From contig JACVGT010000021.1 of NCBI GenBank assembly GCA_018992685.1, forward strand, positions 64,001 to 128,000: a DNA stretch of 64,000 bases. Reading direction: 5' to 3'. The translations under genes were made by a program, and so were the position numbers. Below are positions 2 to 38,465 of this stretch, piece by piece; within the stretch, counting starts at the first letter, position 1; every line of letters starts with the position of its first letter. The notes beneath the pieces are model-generated. The model ran no database searches, was not told where the DNA came from, and saw only the letters and a list, made by a program, of their open reading frames with translations. This DNA is from Theionarchaea archaeon. Lineage in GTDB: Archaea; Methanobacteriota_B; Thermococci; Methanofastidiosales; SZ-28-30.

Positions 2-1417
2 GGAAAGGTTGAAGAAGGCATTCCTGAAGATGATCCCCGGAACCCTGCGGTCATTGCTGACAATGTGGGGGACAATGTTGGGGATGTAGCAGGCATGGGT
101 GCAGACCTGTTTGAGTCCTACGTTGACTCCATCATTGCTGCCATGGCCATTGGTGCTGTGATGGCGGCTACACTCAAGGTAGTCCTTCCCCTGCAAATTG
201 CTGCCATCGGAATCCTCGCGTCAGTTGTGGGAACTTTCTTCGTGTCGGCCTCGGGAGAAAACCTGCACGCCGCACTCAATAGAGGTATTTTTGCTGCAGC
301 CATCCTTATGGCGCTGGGCACGTTTGGATTGATCTATGCCACAGGCAATGACATGGGGATCTTTGGGGCTACCGTGGCCGGCTTAGTTGCCGGTATTGTC
401 ATCGGGTTAATTACTGAATACTATACTGCAGACAACCGCCCCCCTGCCAGGGCAGTGGCCTCTGCCTCAGAGACAGGTCCTGCCACCAACATCATTGCAG
501 GCCTTTCTCTGGGCATGCAAAGCACCGTCATACCGGTCCTTGCAGTATGTGCCGCCATTCTGGCCGCATACTACTTTGCTGATCTGTATGGGATTGCCAT
601 TGCAGCTGTAGGCATGCTTTCCACCCTCGGGATTACACTGGCCACTGACACATATGGCCCGGTGGCCGATAATGCGGCAGGAATTGCAGAAATGGCCAAA
701 ATGGGAAAGGAAGTGAGAGAGCGAGCAGAATCACTGGATGCAGTGGGTAACACCACAGCCGCCATTGGAAAAGGATTTGCCATCGGCTCTGCTGCTCTGA
801 CAGCTCTTGCCCTGTTCAGTGCATACGGAACAAAGGTGTCCCAGTTATCAGGCGCACCCTTTGGCATTGACATTACCCAGCCTTCCACTGTGGTGGGGCT
901 GTTCATCGGTGGATTGCTGCCCTTTGTGTTCTGTTCCTTCTCCATATCTGCTGTGGGAAGAGCTGCGTTTGACATGGTCAAGGAAGTGAGGAGGCAGTTC
1001 AAGGAAATTCCAGGCCTCATGGAGGGTACTGCAAAGCCAGATTACAGCAGGTGTGTTTCCATTTCAACAGGTGCTGCCCTGCGTGAAATGCGCATCCCCG
1101 GATTTCTGGCTGTGGCGTCTCCTGTGGTAGTGGGATTATTACTGGGGACGGAAGCCCTGGGCGGACTGCTGGCGGGTTCTGTGGTCACAGGATTCCTGCT
1201 GGCTGTATTCATGGCTAATTCAGGTGGAGCCTGGGACAATGCAAAGAAATATATAGAAAAAGGCAATCTAGGAGGTAAGGGCTCAGATCCACACAAGGCT
1301 GCTGTCGTGGGAGACACAGTGGGAGACCCCTTCAAAGACACGTCAGGTCCCTCGCTGAACATCCTCATTAAGTTGATGTCCATTGTGGCCCTGGTCTTTG
1401 CCCCCTTATTTGTGTGA
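2..1417 (+). CDS. hppA: Membrane-bound Na+/H+-translocating pyrophosphatase, K+-dependent type (5'-truncated by window edge)
   Basis: Motifs [53 protein letters not shown] (Ala = K+-dependent), [23 protein letters not shown]; many TM segments; frame open to window start. Confidence 0.95.
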
Positions 1418-1421
1418 TTGT

Positions 1422-1973
1422 ATGTACAAGAAAGTGATACTACGAGATACGGTACGAGTGCCTCCTGCCAGGTTCGGCGAGAATCTGAAGGAGGCAATCA
1501 TTTCCATTTTGCGGGAAAGCTTTGCCGGTATCTGGAAGAAAGATCTGGGACTAGTCCTGGCCGTCATAGAGGTGCATGAGGTTGGGTCAGGCAAAGTAAT
1601 CCCTGGAGATGGGGCAGCATATTACGATGTGGAGTACGAAGTATTAGCATACGACCCGGTGATGCACGAAGTTGTTGAAGGAGAAATAGCAGAAATTCTG
1701 GAGTTTGGTGCGTTCATCAGGCTAGGTCCTGTGGATGGACTGGTTCATGTATCCCAGATAACCAATGACTTCATCAGCTTTGATTCCAAGCAGAGAACAC
1801 TGGCCGCAAAAGAAAGCGGAAGAATTCTCAAAGAAGGAGATAGAGTGCGGGCCAGAATCGTGACCATATCCAAGAAGAAGGATGGCACAAAGATTGGGTT
1901 GACATTAAGGCAACCAGGACTGGGCAAAATTCAGTGGATACAGGAAGACATGAAGAAAGAGGAGAGCGCATGA
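1422..1973 (+). CDS. rpoE1: DNA-directed RNA polymerase subunit E' (Rpo7)
   Basis: [22 protein letters not shown]1 domain [30 protein letters not shown]; ATG at 1422. Confidence 0.95.
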
Positions 1974-2146
1974 AAGTCTGTAGAGAGTGTCATAGACTGG
2001 TTGAGGGGAATGTGTGCCCAGTGTGCAAGACCTCTCATCTCACTGATGACTGGAGTGGACTGGTAATCATCTTCGATCTCGAATCGCAGATTGCCAAGAG
2101 TCTGAACATAACCCATCCTGGAAAGTACGCACTTCGGGTCAGATAA
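1970..2146 (+). CDS. spt4: Transcription elongation factor Spt4 (RpoE'')
   Basis: CRECH..CPVC zinc ribbon, WSGLVII, PGKYALRVR; ATGA overlap with rpoE1. Confidence 0.95.
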   Translation: MKVCRECHRLVEGNVCPVCKTSHLTDDWSGLVIIFDLESQIAKSLNITHPGKYALRVR

Positions 2147-2644
2147 ATGAAGATGACGCAAGAAGCATGGGAAAAGATGCAGGAACGTATTGGGCTCCTC
2201 ATCTCAGGAAAGATACCAGAACCGTACAGAATCTTGAAAGGCATGCTCACCGGTGAGAAAGTAATTGCTATTGGAGACGTTGTGGCCGAAAATATGCTGA
2301 AAGTGGGTATTGAACCTGAGATGATCATCGTAGACGGAAAGAGTATGAGAAAGGACCGTGTGGGTACCATGGAATGTGACATCACGGTGGAAAATCCGGC
2401 ATCTGAACTAACAAAGGAACTAATCGCAGCAGTAAAGAAGGGGTACAAGAGGATTTTTGTGGAGGGAGAAGAAGATCTGGCTGCACTCCCTGCAATCTTG
2501 TATGCTGATACCAATACAGTCATTGTGTATGGGGAACCCTCAGAAGGTATTATGGTGATTAGACCTACTGAAGAAAACAAGCAGAAGGTGAAGGAAGTTC
2601 TGGCTCTTTTTGAAAATGGTGATATGGCGCAACTTCTGGGTTGA
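2147..2644 (+). CDS. GTP-dependent dephospho-CoA kinase family (DUF359)
   Basis: IGDVV, IVDGKS, VENPA, VEGEEDLAALP, VYGEP motifs; usual position after spt4 in archaea. Confidence 0.85.
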   Translation: MKMTQEAWEKMQERIGLLISGKIPEPYRILKGMLTGEKVIAIGDVVAENMLKVGIEPEMIIVDGKSMRKDRVGTMECDITVENPASELTKELIAAVKKGYKRIFVEGEEDLAALPAILYADTNTVIVYGEPSEGIMVIRPTEENKQKVKEVLALFENGDMAQLLG

Positions 2645-2735
2645 TGGTCCGAACTTTTCTGCAGAGTCAGCAGAAAGGAGGGTTTTCACCTCCCGTCAGA
2701 AAATGACAACCTCCACAGTACACATGACTTGCCAT

Positions 2736-3167
2736 CTAGTATTTTCTTCTGCCTCCAAAGAAGAGACCTGCTAAAATATCTCTCCGGGATCCGAGTGAAA
2801 GGCTTCGTGTGAAGCTCCTACTCTCCTCATACGTGAGTTTTTCTTTGCTTTCCTGAATTCCTTCTCTCCAGATCTGAAGCCCTTCTTCAATCTCCACCGT
2901 GTAAACCGGAATCTCTTTCTTCTCGGCAAATTCCAGGACAGTCCACACGCTGACAGTGTACTTGCCTTCCAGAGCGATTCCCACCACTGCCTGACACGTA
3001 GTTATTTCCTTTTTCCAGTCTCGTATTCTTTCTGAACTGAGTCTGGAGGGAGACACAATCTGTACATCCGTCCCTAACTTGGACTTGATCATCTCTTTTA
3101 CTGATGCTTCGGTCCGGGAATTGTAGGTAATTGGAGGAAGTATTAGGTAAATTGTTCTCTGTTGCAT
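2736..3167 (-). CDS. Hypothetical protein, nucleoside deoxyribosyltransferase/TIR-like alpha/beta fold
   Basis: 143-aa ORF with ATG after AGGGGA; pattern GKYTVSVWTVLEFAEKKEIPVY resembles the NDT-like helix-strand. Confidence 0.55.
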   Translation of the reverse strand: MQQRTIYLILPPITYNSRTEASVKEMIKSKLGTDVQIVSPSRLSSERIRDWKKEITTCQAVVGIALEGKYTVSVWTVLEFAEKKEIPVYTVEIEEGLQIWREGIQESKEKLTYEESRSFTRSLSLGSRRDILAGLFFGGRRKY

Positions 3168-3895
3168 TACTTTCCCCTGGAGTCAGATGAATAAAAAGGT
3201 TTCGAATTCTGTTTTGACTTCGATTTCTTCAAGTGGTTCATACATCTTTTGGATTCGCAGGCAACAGCAAGGATCTCATGCACCCAGACTCTTCAACCTG
3301 TGTAAGCGATCATCTATGAGGACCTTTATCCCTTGGAATCTCGTGTATCAAAAGGAGGAAAACTTATCATTCGCCGATAAATGAGGAAAAGTTACTGTTC
3401 TTTATTGATTCTCTGTCAAACGAAAGCCTCTTACGAAAATTTCTGTCTAAAGTATGTTAATTTAATCATAATGAGCATGAAGTAGATAATTTTTATTATA
3501 ATAGATCATGCTTAGATTACAGTGGTAAAAAAAGGATCAAGAATGATTTATCTGTATTTGGTGCACCTTGAGCAAATATAAACAGGAATAAAATAGTAAT
3601 TATAATTTTCACAATCTCTAAAATTTGATTCTTGCAGGAATTTCAGTCAAAAGTAAGAATCAAGTCGTTCACTAGAAATCAGGGATATGTACATCAGAAA
3701 AATGCACTAATCTGCATTCTGAGAAATAAGAAAAATCGCAAAGAATTCTTCCAATGGCTGGCTGGAGTCATCTTTGTTCTGTAAATTGAGTCACTTCTGA
3801 TATCACAATTGATATGTTTTTAGATATTAAAAGGCATTTAATAAGTATAAAATGTAGAAAAAAGGTTCAAACAGGGTCATTGGTAATCAATACCC

Positions 3896-3910
3896 AAAAG
3901 TTTATATACC
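3896..3910 (+). promoter_or_regulatory. BRE-TATA promoter of the C25 peptidase gene
   Basis: AAAAG-TTTATATA about 40 nt upstream of SD GGAGGTGA (3941-3948). Confidence 0.7.
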
Positions 3911-3954
3911 CATATGATAACACAAGAACATCACTACAAAGGAGGTGACAAGAT

Positions 3955-5790
3955 ACGAAAGGTAGAATAGGTATTGCACTTGTTCTCATGATATTACTGA
4001 GCTTGAGTATGTCTGCGGTTTATTCTGAAAACGACAACTTCAGTGTGGAGTATCATTTCACTGTCGCCACTGCCACAGATCAGTGTGGTTCCTGGATGAT
4101 CGAGGGCACTATAACCCAAGAGATTGCAGGAGAACCCTTGGTCCCCTACTACCCGGCCACCATTCTTTTGCCACAGGATTCAGAGGTGAAGGACATCAAA
4201 GTGAAGACCAGCAACCCTGTGATCCAGAAGGGTGTAGATTTGCCGTGGGGTCAGCCCCCTTGCACATTCAGTGATGAACCTGTAGTGGTGGGCAAGAATG
4301 AAGCAATCTACGGCTCTGATAATCTGTACCCGGCAACAGACTTTGAGGTGGTGAGCATAGAATCCTGTAAAGGATTCCAGATACTTCTGGTCAACCTCTA
4401 CCCTCTCCAGTACCAGCCAAAATCTGGAACCATAAAGTTCTATGAGACCATGACAGTGGACGTGAAATTTGGCAAGGGCATGAAGAACAACCTGTACAGA
4501 GGACTGGGAGGAGACAAAGCAGAGATCGCTGGGTTCGTGGACAATCCTGAAATGATATCCACATATGAAGAGGGTGCTGTCCCGCTGCAGACTTACCAGT
4601 ACGTCATCATCACCAACGATACCATGAGTTCCACTTTCCAGACACTGGCCAACCATAAGGCACATTACGTGACAGGAGCAGCGGTGTACACGGTATCATG
4701 GATTTCATCCAACTACACCGGAAGGGACAACCAGGAGAAAATCAGGAACTTCATCAAGGACTACTACACCAACCATGGAACACGGTATGTACTGCTGGGT
4801 GGTGATATTGCTGCTGTCCCCTACAGAGGATTCTACGTGTCAACTGGTGGATACACCGATTATGACATGTTGGCTGACATGTACTACGGCCATCTCGATG
4901 GCACGTGGAATACAGACAATGACAGACGCTGGGGAGAATCAGGCGAAGAAGACTGGTATGCTGAAGTCGCTGTGGGAAGAGCACCCGTTGAGACCACCTC
5001 AGAAGCATCAGCTTTTGTGAGCAAAGTCATCAGCTATGAACTGGCCACAAAACCACAAAGAGTCCTCTTGCACCAATCCCGGATTGCATCCAACAACGTC
5101 CCCGATTCACGATGTCTGGCATACAACTGCGACAACTGGATTCCTTCAGGGTACACCATTGATTACCTCTTCGAGGAGAATGGTACTGTTTCCAAATCAG
5201 TGTGGATTTCCCACTGGGCCCAGAACCCCGTGGCAGTAGCCCACATTGGACACGGTAACACAACTGTCTACTACATCAACTACCAGAATGGTGGTACAGT
5301 AAGCTGGTACAATTCAGATGTTGCCAGCATGACCAACACGTTCTGGCCCTGGACCACCAGCGTCGCCTGCATCTGTGGACAGATTGAAGCCAATGACTGC
5401 CTGGCAGAAGCCTACGTCAAGGACTCCAACAATGGAGCTATTGCTGCCATCTACAATGACAACTACGGGTGGTACTCCACAAGCAATGCGTGCAAGTACT
5501 CTGGAGAGTTCTGCGAGAAGGAGTTCAGAGCCTGCTGGAGTGATGGAAAGCAGAAGCTGGGTGATATGCTGAACAAGGCACGGAGCTACTTGGTATCCTC
5601 TGCAAAAATCAACACCACCTACAGATGGTGCTTCTACGAGAGGAACTTGGTAGGAGATCCTGAATCCCCCTCTCTCACCAAGAGAGCAAGCTACAGCGTT
5701 TCAGTAAGGCAGTTCCATTCCTTTGGGGCTTATGGGCTGTTTTCATACAGTACGACATTTCTCGCTCCTATAAGGTATGGACTTCAATAA
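3955..5790 (+). CDS. Secreted gingipain-like cysteine peptidase (family C25) with propeptide; probable ACG start
   Basis: Propeptide GEPLVP; catalytic domain YVLLGGD, ADMYY, VAVGRAP, IGHG, SVAC, NLVGDP; signal peptide (T/M)KGRIGIALVLMILLSLSMSA begins at ACG 3955, after in-frame TGA at 3946. Confidence 0.88.
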   Translation, partial: TKGRIGIALVLMILLSLSMSAVYSENDNFSVEYHFTVATATDQCGSWMIEGTITQEIAGEPLVPYYPATILLPQDSEVKDIKVKTSNPVIQKGVDLPWGQPPCTFSDEPVVVGKNEAIYGSDNLYPATDFEVVSIESCKGFQILLVNLYPLQYQPKSGTIKFYETMTVDVKFGKGMKNNLYRGLGGDKAEIAGFVDNPEMISTYEEGAVPLQTYQYVIITNDTMSSTFQTLANHKAHYVTGAAVYTVSWISSNYTGRDNQEKIRNFIKDYYTNHGTRYVLLGGDIAAVPYRGFYVSTGGYTDYDMLADMYYGHLDGTWNTDNDRRWGESGEEDWYAEVAVGRAPVETTSEASAFVSKVISYELATKPQRVLLHQSRIASNNVPDSRCLAYNCDNWIPSGYTIDYLFEENGTVSKSVWISHWAQNPVAVAHIGHGNTTVYYINYQNGGTVSWYNSDVASMTNTFWPWTTSVACICGQIEANDCLAEAYVKDSNNGAIAAIYNDNYGWYSTSNACKYSGEFCEKEFRACWSDGKQKLGDMLNKARSYLVSSAKINTTYRWCFYERNLVGDPESPSLTKRASYSVSVRQFHSFGAYGLFSYSTTFLAPIRYGLQ

Positions 5791-6039: not shown

Positions 6040-6321
6040 ATGGCATGTAAGATGAACTGCACTTTGAAAGGGAATGACCCTAAAGAAACCATGGAAACCC
6101 TCATCAAGATGGTTGAAGGTCAAGGGTTTGTCTTCAAAGGAACCTCCACCAAAGGGACATTCAAGTATGAGAAAACACTGAAAGCAAGCGGTGAATACTC
6201 CAGGTCAAAAAAGAAGGTTACCTTGACTGTAACCAAATATCCCTTCTTTGTCACTTGCGGAATGATCATATCAGAACTGAACAAAAGGCTGGGTGACTAC
6301 CTTTCATGTGAAGAAGATTAG
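6040..6321 (+). CDS. Small hypothetical protein (93 aa)
   Basis: TATA-like TTTTAATA about 30 nt upstream; plausible globular composition with MAC...PFFVTC pattern. Confidence 0.7.
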   Translation: MACKMNCTLKGNDPKETMETLIKMVEGQGFVFKGTSTKGTFKYEKTLKASGEYSRSKKKVTLTVTKYPFFVTCGMIISELNKRLGDYLSCEED

Positions 6322-6415: not shown

Positions 6416-7645
6416 ATGACCAAAAGTATTGCGACATCGGGCTTTGTTAAGCCAGGATTTGAGGCTGTGCGGGAAGCTTTCATCGAGAACTTCGAGCGCC
6501 GCAGTGAGCTTGGAGCTGCCTGTTGTATCTACTACCGTGGGGAAAAAGTAGTGGACTTATGGGGCGGAATCCGGAACAAAGCAACGGGCGAACCCTGGCA
6601 GGAGAATACGATGGCCCTTGTCGCCTCGACCACAAAGGGACTTGCCGGTCTATCCATGGCACTCGCTCATTCTCGAGGGTTGTTTGATTACGATGAGCGT
6701 GTCTCGAAGTATTGGCCGGAATTTGCACAGCAAGGGAAGGAATTGACTACAGTTAGGCAACTCCTTTCGCACCAGGCCGGATTGCATGTGTTGGATATGC
6801 CGCCAGAAAAGAACCTGATCGCTGACCTCGACCAGCTCGCAATTGTACTCGCGGGGCAAAAGCCGGAGTGGGAGCCCGGCACGAGACAGGCTTACCATGC
6901 CATCACACTCGGGTTCTATGAAAGCGAGTTGCTTCGCCGGGTAGATCCTAAACACCGCTCTTTAGGGCAGTTCTTCCAAGAGGAAATGGCCATTCCACTG
7001 GGCCTTGATTTCTATATTGGGCTACCTGAAGAGATTCCCAACGCCAGACTTGCAACACTTCACAGGGTTAATTTGGCGAGTGCCTTTTTCACCATGCCCA
7101 TCCAGTTAGCACTCTCAGCTATGAACCCGCGCTCACGGTTTCGCCGATCGTTACTAGGATCGTTGCCAGAAGAGAGAGAGCACATCTATGCCCGGAATCT
7201 AGAGGTACCGGCAGGAGGGGGAGTGGGAACGGCTCGAGCCATTGCTCGAGCGTATGGCGAGTTCGCGACCGGGGGCCGTAACCTCGGATTGCGGGAGGAA
7301 ACACTTCAACAGCTAATGGCGCCCGCAGTCCCCCCACTTCATGGATTCCATGATGAATGCCTCAAAATGGAGATTGTTTTCTCACTTGGTTTCATGAAGC
7401 CAAGTCCTGAGAACGCATTCGCTCATCCGAGCTCCTTCGGAGCCCCGGGAACAGGGGGATCCTTCGGTTTTGCTGATCCTCATGCCGGGATTGGTTACGC
7501 GTACATCCCGAATTTGGTTAAGTTCTACTTGACGGATCCAAGGGAAGAAGCGCTTCGTACAGCAATGTATCGCTCGATTGGCAAGACAGACCCGTACCTC
7601 GAGCACAGAGAGCAATCCAGCACGTGCGGTCAGGGGGATTCGTGA
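6416..7645 (+). CDS. Serine hydrolase, beta-lactamase class C / EstB-like esterase
   Basis: SxxK motif ASTTKG, LLSHQAGL, PGTRQAYH, FGAPGTGGSFGFADP; SD AGGTGA. Confidence 0.9.
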   Translation: MTKSIATSGFVKPGFEAVREAFIENFERRSELGAACCIYYRGEKVVDLWGGIRNKATGEPWQENTMALVASTTKGLAGLSMALAHSRGLFDYDERVSKYWPEFAQQGKELTTVRQLLSHQAGLHVLDMPPEKNLIADLDQLAIVLAGQKPEWEPGTRQAYHAITLGFYESELLRRVDPKHRSLGQFFQEEMAIPLGLDFYIGLPEEIPNARLATLHRVNLASAFFTMPIQLALSAMNPRSRFRRSLLGSLPEEREHIYARNLEVPAGGGVGTARAIARAYGEFATGGRNLGLREETLQQLMAPAVPPLHGFHDECLKMEIVFSLGFMKPSPENAFAHPSSFGAPGTGGSFGFADPHAGIGYAYIPNLVKFYLTDPREEALRTAMYRSIGKTDPYLEHREQSSTCGQGDS

Positions 7646-20313: not shown

Positions 20314-20373
20314 CAAATGAACTTGTTTAGTATGTATTTAAGGGTTCGCTTGAGAAAGAAGGGACTTCTCATA

Positions 20374-20763
20374 CCTTTTCCCGTGGAACGAACCACGGGC
20401 TTGAGTTCTTATATTACTAGTTATTTGCGGACGAGGGGGCTTGGTTGATTCTGCTAGTTGAGATGGGGTGTGACGAGGACCGTAAAATAGGAGTGAAGTA
20501 ATTCGTTAGGAACGGGAAGGTGATTATTGAGTCTCGGAGAGGTCTTGATTGATTGTTTTTTGAGTGGCTGCCCTACCCCTTTATTTCCTGTGGAAGTGGG
20601 GAAGAGGAAATGGTCGCTTATGTAGTGATAGAAGAATGAAATGGTTACTTGGTTAAAAAAGATTGTACGCTTATAAAGATTCCTAACGAAAATTACTGCG
20701 CACCTAGCCGCGAAGTTACTTATCTTCTTATAACCCGTCATATTCCAGTGGAAATGAAGGGGG
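20374..20763. other. Replication origin (oriC) with ORB elements
   Basis: ORB TTCCAGTGGAAATGAAGGGGG (+, 20743-20763); inverted ORB TTCCACAGGAAATAAAGGGGT (-, 20575-20595); mini-ORB GTTCCACGGGAAAAGG (-, 20374-20389); non-coding region directly upstream of cdc6. Confidence 0.85.
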
Positions 20764-20812
20764 CGGAGGAAGGCTTAAATAGGTTTATCATGAAGGTGAC
20801 AACGGTGATACA

Positions 20813-22102
20813 TTGGAGGGTCAGAGATCATTGGACCAGCTCTTTGATGAGCTCTTGATTCAAAGGAAGATTTTCAAAAACAAGGAAGTGCTTCGCGACC
20901 ACTATACTCCCTCACTGCTTCCTCATAGAGATCTGCAAATTGATGAACTTGCTACTATACTTGTATCTGTAATGAAGGGTGAGACCCCTTCTAATATCTT
21001 TATTTATGGTAAAACGGGAACGGGCAAGACAGCTGTTACCATTCATGTAGGAGAAGCGTTGGTAAGAAAAGTAGGTGGATGTTGCTATATCCGTCCATAT
21101 GGAACAAAACTGGAGATAAAAAAGCCGGAAATGCGCATTCCTGTTTGGCTCATCTACACGAATTGTGAAATTGTAGATACTCAGTATCGGCTGCTAGCAA
21201 AGCTTGCAGAGTACATGGGGCAGTCAGTACCTTTGACTGGGTGGCCCACAGACAAAGTGTATGAAAGCTTTGTCCGCGCCCTGGACAAAGAGGAACGATT
21301 GGTGATTGTGGTCTTGGATGAGATCGATCGACTGCTCAAGAAAGGAAGCGATAGTGTCCTTTACAATTTGACACGCATCAACTCAGATCTGAAACGAGCC
21401 AAAGTGAGTATTATTGGAATTAGCAATGACCTGAACTTCGTGGAGTTTCTGGATCCCAGAGTGAGGAGTTCTCTGGGAGAAGAAGAATTGGTGTTTCCTC
21501 CGTATTATGCCCAGCAATTAGTTGACATTCTTTCCCATCGGGCAGAAGAGGCTTTTTTCGACAATGCACTGGATCTTGGGGTTATCCCACTGTGCGCTGC
21601 ATTTGCAGCTCAGGAACATGGTGATGCACGTCGCGCTCTAGACTTCTTGAGGATAGCAGGAGAAATTGCTGAAAGAGACAGAGCCTCTCGCGTGACTGAG
21701 AAACATGTGCGTATTGCCAAGAACCGCATTGAACAGGACAGGGTGACGGAAGTCATCAAGACCTTTCCCACCCAATCAAAGTTTGTACTGTTTGCCATAC
21801 TGCTTCTGGAGAAGTACAATGCTTCAGCCATTACCACGGGAGAAACGTACAACGTGTACAAGGAACTGTGCAGACAATCAAAGATGGACATTCTCACTCA
21901 GAGGAGGGTATCTGATATTATCAGCGAAATGGACATGATGGGGATAGTGAATGCAACGGTGGTCAGCAAAGGGCGATATGGAAGAACCAAGGAAATTCGG
22001 CTGGGAGTTCCAATGAGCCAGGTAAAGAATGTTCTGGAGAAGCACCACAAGATAGAACGAATTTCTAACTTTGTACCCCCTATTCAACGAAAACTTGTCT
22101 AG
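20813..22102 (+). CDS. cdc6: Orc1/Cdc6 replication initiator
   Basis: YGKTGTGKT, VLDEID, ISND, GDARRALD, winged-helix SKGRYGRT; TTG start after GGTGA. Confidence 0.96.
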   Translation: MEGQRSLDQLFDELLIQRKIFKNKEVLRDHYTPSLLPHRDLQIDELATILVSVMKGETPSNIFIYGKTGTGKTAVTIHVGEALVRKVGGCCYIRPYGTKLEIKKPEMRIPVWLIYTNCEIVDTQYRLLAKLAEYMGQSVPLTGWPTDKVYESFVRALDKEERLVIVVLDEIDRLLKKGSDSVLYNLTRINSDLKRAKVSIIGISNDLNFVEFLDPRVRSSLGEEELVFPPYYAQQLVDILSHRAEEAFFDNALDLGVIPLCAAFAAQEHGDARRALDFLRIAGEIAERDRASRVTEKHVRIAKNRIEQDRVTEVIKTFPTQSKFVLFAILLLEKYNASAITTGETYNVYKELCRQSKMDILTQRRVSDIISEMDMMGIVNATVVSKGRYGRTKEIRLGVPMSQVKNVLEKHHKIERISNFVPPIQRKLV

Positions 22103-35439: not shown

Positions 35440-36410
35440 CGGGCTCCAAGTATGCCTATGCATTCGGAAGGATAAAGGCCCTTGAAGTGGGATTGATCGA
35501 TGCATCCCAGCTCAAGAGGATGATCGATGCCCGCACAGCTCAGGACGCAGTGAAGATTGTGGCAGAAACATCATATGGAACCTATCTTTCTGAGAGTCCA
35601 GACATACCAGAAATTGAGCGTGCTATCCTTCAAGAAGTGGAAAGGACCTACCAGGTTGTGGGGAAGATATCGCCCGAGAAGGCTGTTACTGATCTTCTTC
35701 AGCTCAAGTATGATATACACAATATCAAGATCTTACTCAAGTCGCAGATAACAGGAAAGGACCTGTCTCATCTGCTGGTGCCCCTGGGGAGAGAAGGTTC
35801 TGGCGCATTGAAGGCAGCATGCGATGGAGATCTGAAGGCAGTATCCCCTGAGGTAGCACAGATCATTCAGAAAGCACTCTCGCTGTATGAAGAGAGCGGG
35901 GATTTTCAGAAAGTCCAGTTCTTTCTGGACAGGGAGCATTCCCTTTTGCTCAGTGAGGGTTTCAGTGAAATCCCTTTCCTGCGGCAGTACAATGCCCTTG
36001 CAGTTGATCTAGAGAATATTCGCAACTTCATCAGAGCAGAAAAGATGGAAATCGGGTTTGAGGAGGTCTTCTTGTCAGGAGGGACACTGGTGCTGGCTTT
36101 TTTTTCTGAGGTAAAGGATCAACCCGCTGACTACTTTATGGAATCCACCAGGAATCGTGATTTTGCAGGTGTGGTTCATGAGGGGTTGACTGCCTATCAG
36201 GAGACAGGCTCACTCTCTCGTTACGAGACGCTGGTAGACAACTTCCTCATGGAGTACATGAAGAAAGCAAAGACATACTCCCTTTCTCTTGAGCCGGTAG
36301 TTGGATACCTCTTTGCCAAAGAACGGGAGGCAAAAGTGGTGAGACAGATACTTATTTCAAAAATGAAAGGGATCGATATCACAGGAAGGGTGAGTGACGT
36401 TTATGAATAA
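35436..36410 (+). CDS. atpC: A/V-type ATP synthase subunit C
   Basis: YAFGRIKALE, YDIHNIK, DLENIR, YLFAKERE; GTGA overlap. Confidence 0.9.
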   Translation: MTGSKYAYAFGRIKALEVGLIDASQLKRMIDARTAQDAVKIVAETSYGTYLSESPDIPEIERAILQEVERTYQVVGKISPEKAVTDLLQLKYDIHNIKILLKSQITGKDLSHLLVPLGREGSGALKAACDGDLKAVSPEVAQIIQKALSLYEESGDFQKVQFFLDREHSLLLSEGFSEIPFLRQYNALAVDLENIRNFIRAEKMEIGFEEVFLSGGTLVLAFFSEVKDQPADYFMESTRNRDFAGVVHEGLTAYQETGSLSRYETLVDNFLMEYMKKAKTYSLSLEPVVGYLFAKEREAKVVRQILISKMKGIDITGRVSDVYE

Positions 36411-36720
36411 GATAGCAATGATATCAGATAGAGAGACAGGATTGATCTTTAAGAACATGGGAATCGATAGTCTGGAGGCTGAAACTCCCGACATGGCCTC
36501 TGCACTCCTGAGAGAACACGCCAAGGAGTATGGAATCATCTTCATCACGGAAGACCTGGCAGTACAGATTGCAGGTACTATTGAGGAATATGCATCTTCA
36601 AGTCTTCCTGCAGTCATTGAAATACCTTCATTTGAGGGGCCAAAAGGCCTGGGCAAAATGAAGATGAGACGCATCTGCGAAAAAGCTGCAGGTGCTGATA
36701 TTCTGTTTAAGGAGGAATGA
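36403..36720 (+). CDS. atpF: A/V-type ATP synthase subunit F
   Basis: [31 protein letters not shown]. Confidence 0.92.
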
Positions 36721-38465
36721 TTATGGGTACAATTATCAAGGTGTCTGGACCCGTGGTGGTGGCAGAGAAGATGGAAAATGCCCGAATGTACGATGTGTGC
36801 AGGGTGGCAGACGAGCGGCTGATTGGTGAAATCATTGAGCTGCGAGGCGATAAAGCCACCATTCAAGTATATGAAGAGACAGCAGGATTAGGCCCGGGCG
36901 ATCCCGTTGAATCCACAGGGAAACCATTGAGTGTGGAACTGGGTCCGGGAATGATTGAGTCAATTTATGATGGAATACAGAGACCTCTGGATGTGATCAG
37001 GGATAGAATTGGACCCCACATCAAGAGAGGAATTGAGCAACCTGGTATTGACAGGAAAAAGAAGTGGGAGTTCCAGCCCTTGCTGAAAAAAGGGCAGAAA
37101 GTCGTGAGTGGAGATATCCTGGGCGTTGTGCAGGAAGGCCCCCTGGTGAGCCACCGGATTCTGATTCCCATAGGCTCAGAGGGAGAGATCGAAGAGATCT
37201 TTTCTGGAACCTTTACGGTGGAGGAAACTGTTGCCACCCTTGATGGCACGGATATTTCTATGCTTCAGAAATGGCCTGTTCGAAAGGGGAGACCATACAA
37301 GGAGAAGCTGCCACCGTCCAGCCCACTGGTGACGGGGCAGCGCATTGTGGATACCTTCTTTCCCATGGCCAAGGGCGGGACTGCGTGCTGTCCGGGACCG
37401 TTTGGATCGGGAAAGACCGTGACACAGCACCAACTGGCGAAATGGGCAGAGGCAGATATCATATTCTTTGTAGGATGCGGAGAACGCGGTAATGAAATGG
37501 CAGAAGTGCTACGGGAATTCCCCGGGCTGCAGGATCCCAAGAGTGGGGAACCGCTGATGAAGAGAACTGTCTTGGTGGCCAATACTTCAGACATGCCCGT
37601 GGCAGCACGGGAAGCTTCCATTTACACGGGAATTACACTGGCAGAGTATTTCAGAGATATGGGGTATTCAGTGGCCTTGATGGCAGATTCCACATCCAGG
37701 TGGGCTGAAGCACTGCGAGAGATATCAGGGCGGCTGGAAGAAATGCCAGGTGAAGAGGGGTACCCCGCATATCTGGCGTCCCGGCTGGCTGAATTCTATG
37801 AACGTGCAGGCAAGGTGGTTACCTTGGGGTCTGAGTACAGGGAAGGGTCATTGTCTGTAATTGGAGCAGTTTCTCCTCCCGGTGGGGACTTTTCAGAGCC
37901 TGTGACCCAGGCCACTCTGAGAATCACCAAGGTGTTCTGGGGCCTGGATGCACGACTGGCCTTTGCCAGACACTTCCCGGCCATCGACTGGCTACAGAGT
38001 TATTCACTGTATCTGGACGATGTGAAAGACTGGTGGACTGAAAATGTTTCCGGGAACTGGAGAAGCTACCGGGATGAAGCCATGCGTATCCTGCAGGAAG
38101 AAGCGGAATTGGAAGAGATTGTACGGCTGGTAGGAGTTGAAGCCCTGTCCAACAGAGACCGATTGTTGTTGGAGACTGCAAAATCTCTGCGAGAAGATTT
38201 CCTTCACCAGAATGCGTACCATGAGATTGATACGTATACGTCTTCTGAAAAGCAGTTCACCATGCTGGAACTCATCCTTGATCTCCATCACTGGGGCCTG
38301 GATGCACTGGGCAGGGGTGCACCCATTAAGCCGATACTGGAATTGAAAGAAAGGGAAGATATCGCCAAACTCAAGTTCGTTTCAGAAGAGGAATTTCCCA
38401 AGGCACTGGAGGGGTTGAGGGAGCGAATACGAACTGCAGTGCAGTCCATGAAGGGAGGAGATTGA
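36717..38465 (+). CDS. atpA: A/V-type ATP synthase subunit A
   Basis: [38 protein letters not shown]; no intein. Confidence 0.98.

Follow-up and report, generated by a model that had tools for sequence, protein, structure and literature searches.

ACG as the probable start codon of a gingipain-family peptidase gene in Theionarchaea

Introduction

The Escherichia coli genes infC and pcnB naturally start at AUU behind a Shine-Dalgarno (SD) sequence. Here we describe a related arrangement in an archaeon, i.e. a gene for a C25 (gingipain-family) peptidase that probably starts at ACG behind a long SD sequence. The gene lies in a 64,000-nt stretch of DNA from an uncultured sediment archaeon of the Theionarchaea (positions 64,001 to 128,000 of the forward strand of contig JACVGT010000021.1, assembly GCA_018992685.1), termed the window, the first letter of which is position 1. 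The bacterial cases would share with this locus a 30S subunit that is positioned by the SD and takes a one-mismatch codon with the initiator tRNA at low output, a low output that is used for regulation in infC. They differ from it in that the natural bacterial codons are AUU, AUA or CUG, and in that fidelity control by IF3 is inapplicable here, where the factors are the archaeal aIF1, aIF1A and aIF2.

ACG itself reportedly initiates translation in mammalian cells, as described by Peabody in 1987, and is said to do so on the P/C mRNA of Sendai virus. In such eukaryotic and viral cases, as proposed for the present gene, ACG is read by the initiator Met-tRNA, and the product is often a low-abundance isoform or an N-terminally extended, differently targeted one. 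These cases rely on scanning and Kozak context instead of an SD and usually stand beside an isoform started at a downstream AUG, whereas the ACG described here would be the only productive start. To our knowledge, NCBI translation table 11 does not list ACG as a start codon.

In E. coli, a GFP started with ACG is detectable and carries an N-terminal Met by mass spectrometry (10.1101/063800). Land-plant chloroplasts resemble the present locus in having a genomic ACG at a conserved start together with SD-type, prokaryote-like translation; there, the ACG start codons of rpl2, psbL and ndhD are converted to AUG by C-to-U editing (PMC9845219). The chloroplast system differs in needing a dedicated editing machinery, which is not known in Archaea. 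Among Archaea, the nearest precedent is a ribosome profiling study of Haloferax volcanii, in which ~30% of the putative alternative initiation sites were near-cognate (PMC7261190). These sites are archaeal and near-cognate, as ours would be; they differ in that the authors excluded them to limit false positives, that they are mostly alternative sites, and that none is presented in the accessible text as a conserved sole start (PMC7261190). ACG is not mentioned in the part of PMC5622118 that was available, and our literature searches, which left most subscription journals outside their coverage, brought up no description of an archaeal gene that naturally starts at ACG. A search joining Theionarchaea and gingipain returned no paper.

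The closest described proteins are the gingipains. Like gingipain R of Porphyromonas gingivalis (PDB 4ief and 1cvr), the protein encoded in the window carries a propeptide-like domain at its N-terminus and, after it, a catalytic domain with a His/Cys dyad. It differs in that the similarity is distant (profile E 9.6e-6) and in that its host is an archaeon.

Start region of the peptidase gene

The reading frame of the peptidase runs without interruption from 3949 up to the TAA at 5788-5790 (613 codons; plus strand, as are all features of this gene). Upstream, the frame is closed by TGA 3946-3948, which is made of the last three bases of the SD, and there is no canonical start in frame between this TGA and the ATG at 3988. 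The codons that follow the TGA are CAA, GAT and ACG, so that the ACG at 3955..3957 is the sole one-mismatch relative of ATG before the codons for a Lys-Gly-Arg N-region. It is preceded by the SD AGGAGGTGA (3940..3948) and by the 6-nt spacer CAAGAT (3949..3954). This SD is a 9-nt match to the complement of what we take to be the 3' end of archaeal 16S rRNA, the window itself being without a 16S gene. After the ACG come AAA GGT AGA ATA GGT ATT GCA CTT GTT CTC and then the first in-frame ATG (3988..3990). Initiation at ACG would give a coding sequence of 611 codons plus TAA (3955..5790), whereas the open reading frame (ORF) obtained with ATG, GTG and TTG starts only is 3988..5790 (600 aa). The database copy of the window protein (P0002, 593 aa) begins even further downstream, at ATG 4009..4011, as does the database version of the ortholog described below (P0003); this ATG is conserved in both sequences.

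The first-pass annotation of this DNA, made from its letters, had proposed a start at ACG rather than ATG on the strength of a TATA element at 3901, an SD GGAGGTGA at 3941-3948 with the in-frame stop TGA inside it, an ATG at 3988 that lacks an SD, and an SD spacing equal to that of the ATG-started gene at 6416. On re-reading the coordinates, each of these elements was recovered. The TATA box is TTTATATA at 3901-3908; the SD match is one base longer than described, beginning at 3940; ATG 3988 has an SD match of 2 nt; and the gene at 6416 reads AAGGTGA + ACCGAG + ATG, which is a 6-nt spacing there too.

The TATA box is part of a block of 36 nt (3877..3912) that is identical in the ortholog (invariant alignment columns 98-133; ~2892-2927 of the ortholog's locus). 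This block also holds an A-rich BRE-like stretch and, upstream of it, an inverted repeat GGTA-N5-TACC; the BRE and TATA names given here presume the general archaeal promoter layout. Located just 5' of these elements, the inverted repeat could be a regulator binding site for the peptidase gene. The ~550 nt of AT-rich DNA at 3385-3939 (GC 0.295 vs 0.471 for the window) that precede the gene are still partly alignable with the ortholog and contain stops in all frames, no ORF above 52 codons and no Rfam match.

The product is a C25 peptidase of a Theionarchaea/Methanofastidiosia archaeon. Pfam PF01364 (Peptidase_C25) matches residues 218-572 of the window protein (P0001) with 150.9 bits (cut-off 23, E 7.4e-44), and PF08126, the C25 propeptide domain, matches with 24.2 bits (cut-off 22, E 2.1e-5). 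A search of the Protein Data Bank (PDB) with the single sequence gave no match, and a profile search was needed, by which the Lys-gingipain propeptide entry 5mun_A was found (E 3.7e-4). In a profile of 22 homologs, H435 (in GHG, codon 5251-5253) and C474 (in AC, codon 5368-5370) are invariant and align with the same motifs of gingipain R2 (4ief_B), which presumably are the site of the catalytic His/Cys dyad of gingipain R. The homolog search returned 626 homologs among 6372 candidates; the named ones among the 120 homologs listed all come from a Theionarchaea or Methanofastidiosia archaeon.

Conservation in an ortholog and in paralogs

A scan of genome contigs retrieved five loci (L001 to L005), all in one Theionarchaea metagenome-assembled genome (MAG). 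L002 is collinear with window positions 1175-5120 and is therefore the ortholog in a related species. The two proteins share 338 of 388 residues in an ungapped comparison (50 differ), and the corresponding 388 codons have, by the Nei-Gojobori method, a dS of 1.10, a dN of 0.076 and an omega of 0.069. The ortholog has the same ACG, within a stretch of 34 identical nucleotides (3938..3971) that contains the SD, the spacer, the ACG and the next five codons. At an overall nucleotide identity of 81.4%, this is the longest perfect run from 60 nt 5' of the ACG through the 388 codons, and the chance of a 34-nt identity at a pre-specified site is 0.814^34, about 0.0009. In comparison, 8 mismatches and 1 indel have accumulated in the 31 nt that separate TATA box and SD. 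Because the ACG context is identical at such a dS and omega, the gene has been functional for long with an ACG and with the in-frame TGA upstream of it.

In L002, the window's ATG 3988 is replaced by ACG. The first in-frame canonical codon there is a TTG at the equivalent of 4003; an ATG in this frame does not occur until the equivalent of 4009, only 6 codons before the mature-domain motif. The presequence codons 3955..4026 differ between the two sequences by 6 synonymous and 3 non-synonymous changes (P = 0.011 vs the neutral synonymous-site share), so that the codons between the ACG and the mature domain look as if they are translated and evolve as coding sequence.

As the first-pass annotation had proposed, we compared start codons with those of paralogs. 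L001 has AGGAGGTGA, 5 nt and ATG; L004 has AGGAGGTGA, 5 nt and GTG; L005 has TGGAGGTGA, 5 nt and TTG; and in each of the three, Lys/Arg-rich codons follow. When the five sequences are aligned, with a one-base gap in the spacers of the paralogs, the start-codon column holds the ACG of both the window and L002 next to the ATG, GTG and TTG of the paralogs.

In this MAG, the C25 gene of L002 (3001-4130) is cut at a contig end, and L003 (1-985) is the C-terminal part of a C25 gene, 77% identical to the window, that begins at a contig end. C25 paralogs apparently break assemblies, and copy numbers in MAGs are probably underestimates.

Ribosome-binding sites

The 9-nt SD before the ACG is the longest anti-SD match in the 64-kb window. 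We analyzed 55 window ORFs, i.e. the selected set with 2147-2641(+) replacing 2038-2580(-) and without 36360-36866(-), and found that in 26 of them a canonical start among the first 45 codons is preceded by an SD of at least 5 nt. The spacings were 3 nt (1 gene), 4 (14), 5 (6), 6 (3), 7 (1) and 9 (1), so that 23 of the 26 SD-led genes have 4-6 nt. Among internal in-frame ATG, GTG and TTG codons, such an SD is found for 59 of 1150. For the candidate starts of the peptidase, the best SD match is 9 nt at ACG 3955, compared with 4 nt at ATT 3973, 3 nt at ATG 4009, 2 nt at both ATG 3988 and ATA 3967, and 1 nt at GTG 3945.

We also searched the window and the five loci for an SD of at least 7 nt at a spacing of 3-8 nt from a long ORF that lies near its upstream stop and has no canonical start. 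This arrangement was found for the peptidase gene and its ortholog only; the remaining hits of the scan were internal to genes or part of a hairpin at 2676-2694. Because no other strong SD without a canonical start occurs in this sample, ACG use appears to be specific to the gene rather than a property of the genome sampled.

Geometry of the signal peptide

A start at ACG would give a signal-peptide-like presequence of 24 codons, TKGRIGIALVLMILLSLSMSAVYS (3955..4026), with a first residue that is presumably Met. We judged signal peptides by length, charge, hydropathy and likeness to paralogs. Among the 120 listed homologs, the start is followed by Lys or Arg in 85, and in 70 of these 85 the distance from the start to the mature motif is 26-28 residues. 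ACG 3955 lies 28 residues from the motif and provides two basic residues among the first five. ATA 3967 and ATT 3973 lie at 24 and 22 residues, with presequences of 20 and 18 residues and no basic residue, whereas ATG 3988, at 17 residues, leaves a presequence of 13 residues with a weak hydrophobic core and no basic N-region. ATG 4009 is 10 residues from the motif and 6 residues before the mature-domain motif. The usual presequence length of the family together with a basic N-terminus is thus obtained only from the ACG, and an N-terminal secretion signal would exist only with a start at or near 3955. This agrees with the earlier description of a signal peptide from the ACG start, in so far as the length of 28 and the Lys/Arg N-region match the family, which is a matter of likeness.

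Start position across the family

Gene callers have extended some paralogs through the SD, reading it as Glu-Val, and in doing so they expose the residue at the start position in 31 of the 120 listed homologs: Met in 7, Leu in 18, Val in 3 and Thr in 3. For the 120 as a whole, the start position is occupied by Met in 65 (the first residue in 58, internal in 7), by Leu in 30 (12 first, 18 internal), by Val in 3 and by Thr in 3; 13 have truncated or mis-anchored N-termini without an assignable start, and 6 lack the anchor motif. Leu is thus present in at least 30 of the listed homologs, L005, with TTG, being the only such case seen as DNA. The share of weak starts in this family is far higher than among the window's own genes. 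The frequency of Leu-coded starts (presumably TTG) downstream of this same strong SD points to weak starts being tolerated or favoured in these proteases, and ACG would be the extreme of this trend.

Six homologs (P0040, P0053, P0072, P0083, P0103 and P0114), which lie outside the clade described next, begin at a Met in the hydrophobic core, 15-21 residues before the motif instead of 26-28. These truncated homologs may harbour further non-canonical starts or frameshifts.

A tree was built from 48 proteins, after 12 of P0002-P0061 had been dropped for lack of the exact anchor motif used for trimming. Eight short proteins (593-614 aa; P0002-P0008 and P0011) form one clade in it (support 98/99), and a canonical start at the family position is missing in 7 of the 8. 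For two, the DNA reads ACG (with P0003 taken as the product of an L002-type gene), three have Thr, and two (P0005 and P0006) have been cut back to an internal Met. The Thr cases of the family, i.e. P0004, P0007 and P0011, all fall in this clade and are known from protein only. P0004 and P0007 begin with Met-Thr-His/Asn-Thr-Lys-Gly and P0011 with Glu-Val-Thr-Asn-Thr-Lys, which implies a 5-nt spacer with the SD's GTG (or an ATG) in frame, as opposed to the 6-nt spacer with TGA in frame in the window and L002. Given that the 600 codons downstream are under an omega of 0.07, an indel here fits a non-coding spacer with the start 3' of it. Searches based on the N-terminus (11 matches among 37 candidates of near length and 4 among 29 of shorter length) yielded no new clade member.

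The proteins of the short clade (P0003-P0008, P0011 and the window protein, in which this part is encoded at 5650-5787) end ~35 residues past the catalytic domain with a Ser/aromatic/hydrophobic tail. They differ from their own long paralogs of ~780 aa in having neither the C-terminal Ig-like (PF17957) domains nor the hydrophobic segment with a Lys/Arg tail, which suggests a mode of anchoring or release different from that of the long paralogs.

Initiation at ACG and alternative explanations

We consider it probable that translation of the peptidase is initiated at ACG 3955 by SD-driven near-cognate initiation, and that the start of the database protein has been placed too far downstream. In this scheme, an mRNA with a short leader would probably be transcribed from the TATA box at 3901-3908, and the unusually long SD AGGAGGTGA would position the 30S subunit with the ACG in the P site, so that translation would start 6 nt 3' of the SD. 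The likely decoder is the initiator Met-tRNA, with one mismatch at the middle codon position, and this would yield a pre-pro-peptidase of 611 residues that carries a normal signal peptide. One T-to-C change in an ancestor of the short C25 clade would have turned the family's ATG into the ACG, which would have been kept since and probably gives low, throttled expression. The case for this initiation site is a comparative one; that ribosomes actually start at the ACG, that Met is incorporated there and that output is low is what we infer. The claim of the first-pass annotation that the gene starts at ACG and not ATG is the best supported by the ortholog, the paralogs and the family; among the mechanisms it had offered, near-cognate initiation is favoured, ACG-to-AUG editing is highly improbable and a recent mutation is excluded.

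Several points weigh against a start at ACG. When all 64 codons were compared in E. coli, ACG initiated at 0.1-1% of AUG (10.1101/063800), in yeast CYC7 it is a poor start (~0.4-0.5%), and the available part of the review that reports the latter value names AUG, GUG and UUG only as archaeal starts (PMC4705826). Taken by itself, the presence of an ACG is no great surprise, since a random in-frame codon at a good spacing has a chance of ~1/9 of being a one-mismatch relative of ATG. The ACG is known from two DNA sequences only, and these are identical around it, which leaves the site without substitution information. Within the clade, P0008 has a normal Met-Lys-Gly-Lys start, and the Thr of P0004, P0007 and P0011 is seen as a residue only. 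Each of these proteins could also begin elsewhere, either at an ATG or GTG that lies in frame where the SD is or, for P0011, at an ATG four codons further on. The clade-wide Thr could also reflect shared ancestry of a sense codon; the clade-level argument for an ACG start is suggestive rather than conclusive.

Among the alternatives, translation may begin at an in-frame codon further downstream (ATA 3967, ATT 3973 or ATG 3988), the SD serving only to load ribosomes and the Lys-Gly-Arg codons being untranslated leader. ATA 3967 is conserved in L002 and is aligned with a Met of P0011, starts at ATA and ATT keep the full hydrophobic core (maximal 8-residue hydropathy of 3.54 and 3.45), and in E. 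coli initiation at AUA and AUU (1-2% of AUG) exceeds that at ACG (0.1-1%; 10.1101/063800). We nevertheless regard this as unlikely. The SD would be 18, 24 or 39 nt away from these codons, compared with the 4-6 nt prevailing in the window, and ATG 3988 is missing from L002. Furthermore, the Lys/Arg N-region typical of the family would be lost, with presequences shortened to 20, 18 or 13 residues vs a start-to-motif distance of 26-28, and the perfect conservation of the five codons after the ACG extends to their third positions.

A start at ATG 4009, as annotated, would make the protein an intracellular peptidase without a signal peptide and the upstream similarity a relic. The window and L002 share this ATG, and both database proteins begin with it; however, it has no SD (3-nt match), and the strongest SD of the window would be left without a function. 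The 18 codons 5' of it differ by 4 synonymous and 2 non-synonymous changes (P = 0.038), with no stop and no indel at a dS above 1. In a relic, one would expect decay of the kind seen from TATA box to SD, with its 8 mismatches and 1 indel. We hold this explanation to be quite improbable.

The third alternative, which we judge very unlikely, is a start at GTG 3945 followed by a +1 shift before TAG 3963-3965 (e.g. at GAA-AGG or AGG-TAG), the presequence beginning with Met-Thr-Arg-Tyr-Glu. The GTG opens an out-of-frame mini-ORF, GTG ACA AGA TAC GAA AGG TAG (3945..3965), that begins within the SD and is of relevance to this explanation only. A stop codon or AGG in the A site is a classic context of +1 shifts (prfB, yeast Ty1), and P0004, P0007 and P0011 have an ATG or GTG here that shares the frame of the gene. 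The conserved 34-nt run contains the mini-ORF from its GTG to its TAG, but since that stretch is identical throughout, the conservation of AGG TAG (3960-3965) does not discriminate. Against a frameshift, GTG 3945 abuts GGAG without a spacer (best SD match 1 nt) and has no ribosome-binding site of its own; with a leader of ~15 nt predicted from the TATA box it would not lie at the 5' end, so that leaderless initiation would be inapplicable; and the candidate shift sites seem to offer no good re-pairing codon. In the paralogs, this GTG clearly belongs to the SD of a start located 5 nt further 3'.

It is equally doubtful that the ACG is specifically serviced, i.e. that C3956 is deaminated to U in the mRNA or that a lineage-specific initiation feature accepts ACG efficiently. 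If so, a secreted-peptidase clade would be controlled at start-codon recognition, with the 34-nt block as recognition element, and deamination would be the first mRNA start-codon editing in Archaea. Editing of C3956 to give a normal AUG, as at plant-organelle start codons, is by itself highly improbable. It would be the exact change made at the chloroplast rpl2, psbL and ndhD starts (PMC9845219). The strong nucleotide conservation around the site would also suit a recognition element for editing. On the other side, no cytidine-deaminase domain was found among the 54 window ORFs scanned, 64 kb being a small sample of the genome, and no stable local RNA structure is predicted (z = 0.71, as detailed below). 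Moreover, we know of C-to-U editing in Archaea only at a tRNA position, not in mRNA.

Finally, an artefact (an assembly or sequencing error at 3956) or a recently inactivated pseudogene has a negligible probability: a one-base difference from ATG is the simplest type of error and the source is a MAG, but an independent assembly of another species has the same base within the same context, the 388 codons have an omega of 0.069 at a dS of 1.10, the frame of 613 codons is uninterrupted and the peptidase retains its catalytic His and Cys. An assembly error at 3956, which the first-pass annotation had named as a possible refutation, and the recent T-to-C mutation that it had offered as one origin of the ACG are both excluded, as is a decaying pseudogene, because of the context in L002, the divergence (dS ~1.1, dN/dS 0.07) and the presequence changes taken together.

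Further candidates were rejected. Read-through of TGA 3946 would find no ATG, GTG or TTG among the in-frame codons back to the TATA box. The only ATG nearby, at 3914, is out of frame, lies 5' of the likely transcription start and opens a short ORF that L002 does not preserve. Folding of 3930-4020 revealed no structure beyond that of shuffled sequences (z = 0.71; 153 of 200 shuffles fold as well) and lends no support to a structural switch or a hairpin-assisted start.

Other features of the window

The window ORFs are those of an ordinary archaeal chromosome, including genes for a membrane pyrophosphatase, Rpo7, an archaeal dephospho-CoA kinase, Orc1/Cdc6, GrpE-DnaK-DnaJ, HypF and the A-type ATP synthase operon. 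The domain scan covered 54 of the 56 selected ORFs, the minus-strand ORFs 2038-2580 and 36360-36866 being omitted because they overlap better ones, and additionally the ORFs 2147-2644(+) and 6040-6321(+). An Rfam scan of the whole window detected two tRNAs only and no match near the start site of the peptidase.

The gap that separates the convergent genes 2147-2644(+) and 2736-3167(-) contains, at 2676-2699, a GC-rich inverted repeat GGAGGG ... CCTCCC that resembles a bidirectional terminator hairpin and gives a false SD hit on both strands. The Orc1/Cdc6 gene (20813-22099) appears to start at TTG behind a 6-nt SD, and the ~500-nt gap upstream of it (20317-20812) could hold a replication origin.

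Discussion

Near-cognate initiation is a known phenomenon; what would be new here is its form, i.e. an ACG that is SD-led, archaeal and conserved across species. Gene callers limited to ATG, GTG and TTG cut this protein and its relatives to an internal Met (593-599 aa), with a signal peptide that is absent or halved. Therefore, predicted inventories of the secreted peptidases of protein-degrading sediment archaea will miss these proteins. A gene that has a conserved ACG as its only start, preceded by a maximal SD, would constitute natural near-cognate initiation in Archaea beyond GUG and UUG. It would also offer a simple substrate for the stringency of start selection by aIF1 and aIF2 on SD-led mRNAs, and for the use of weak starts as a throttle on a potentially self-damaging protease.

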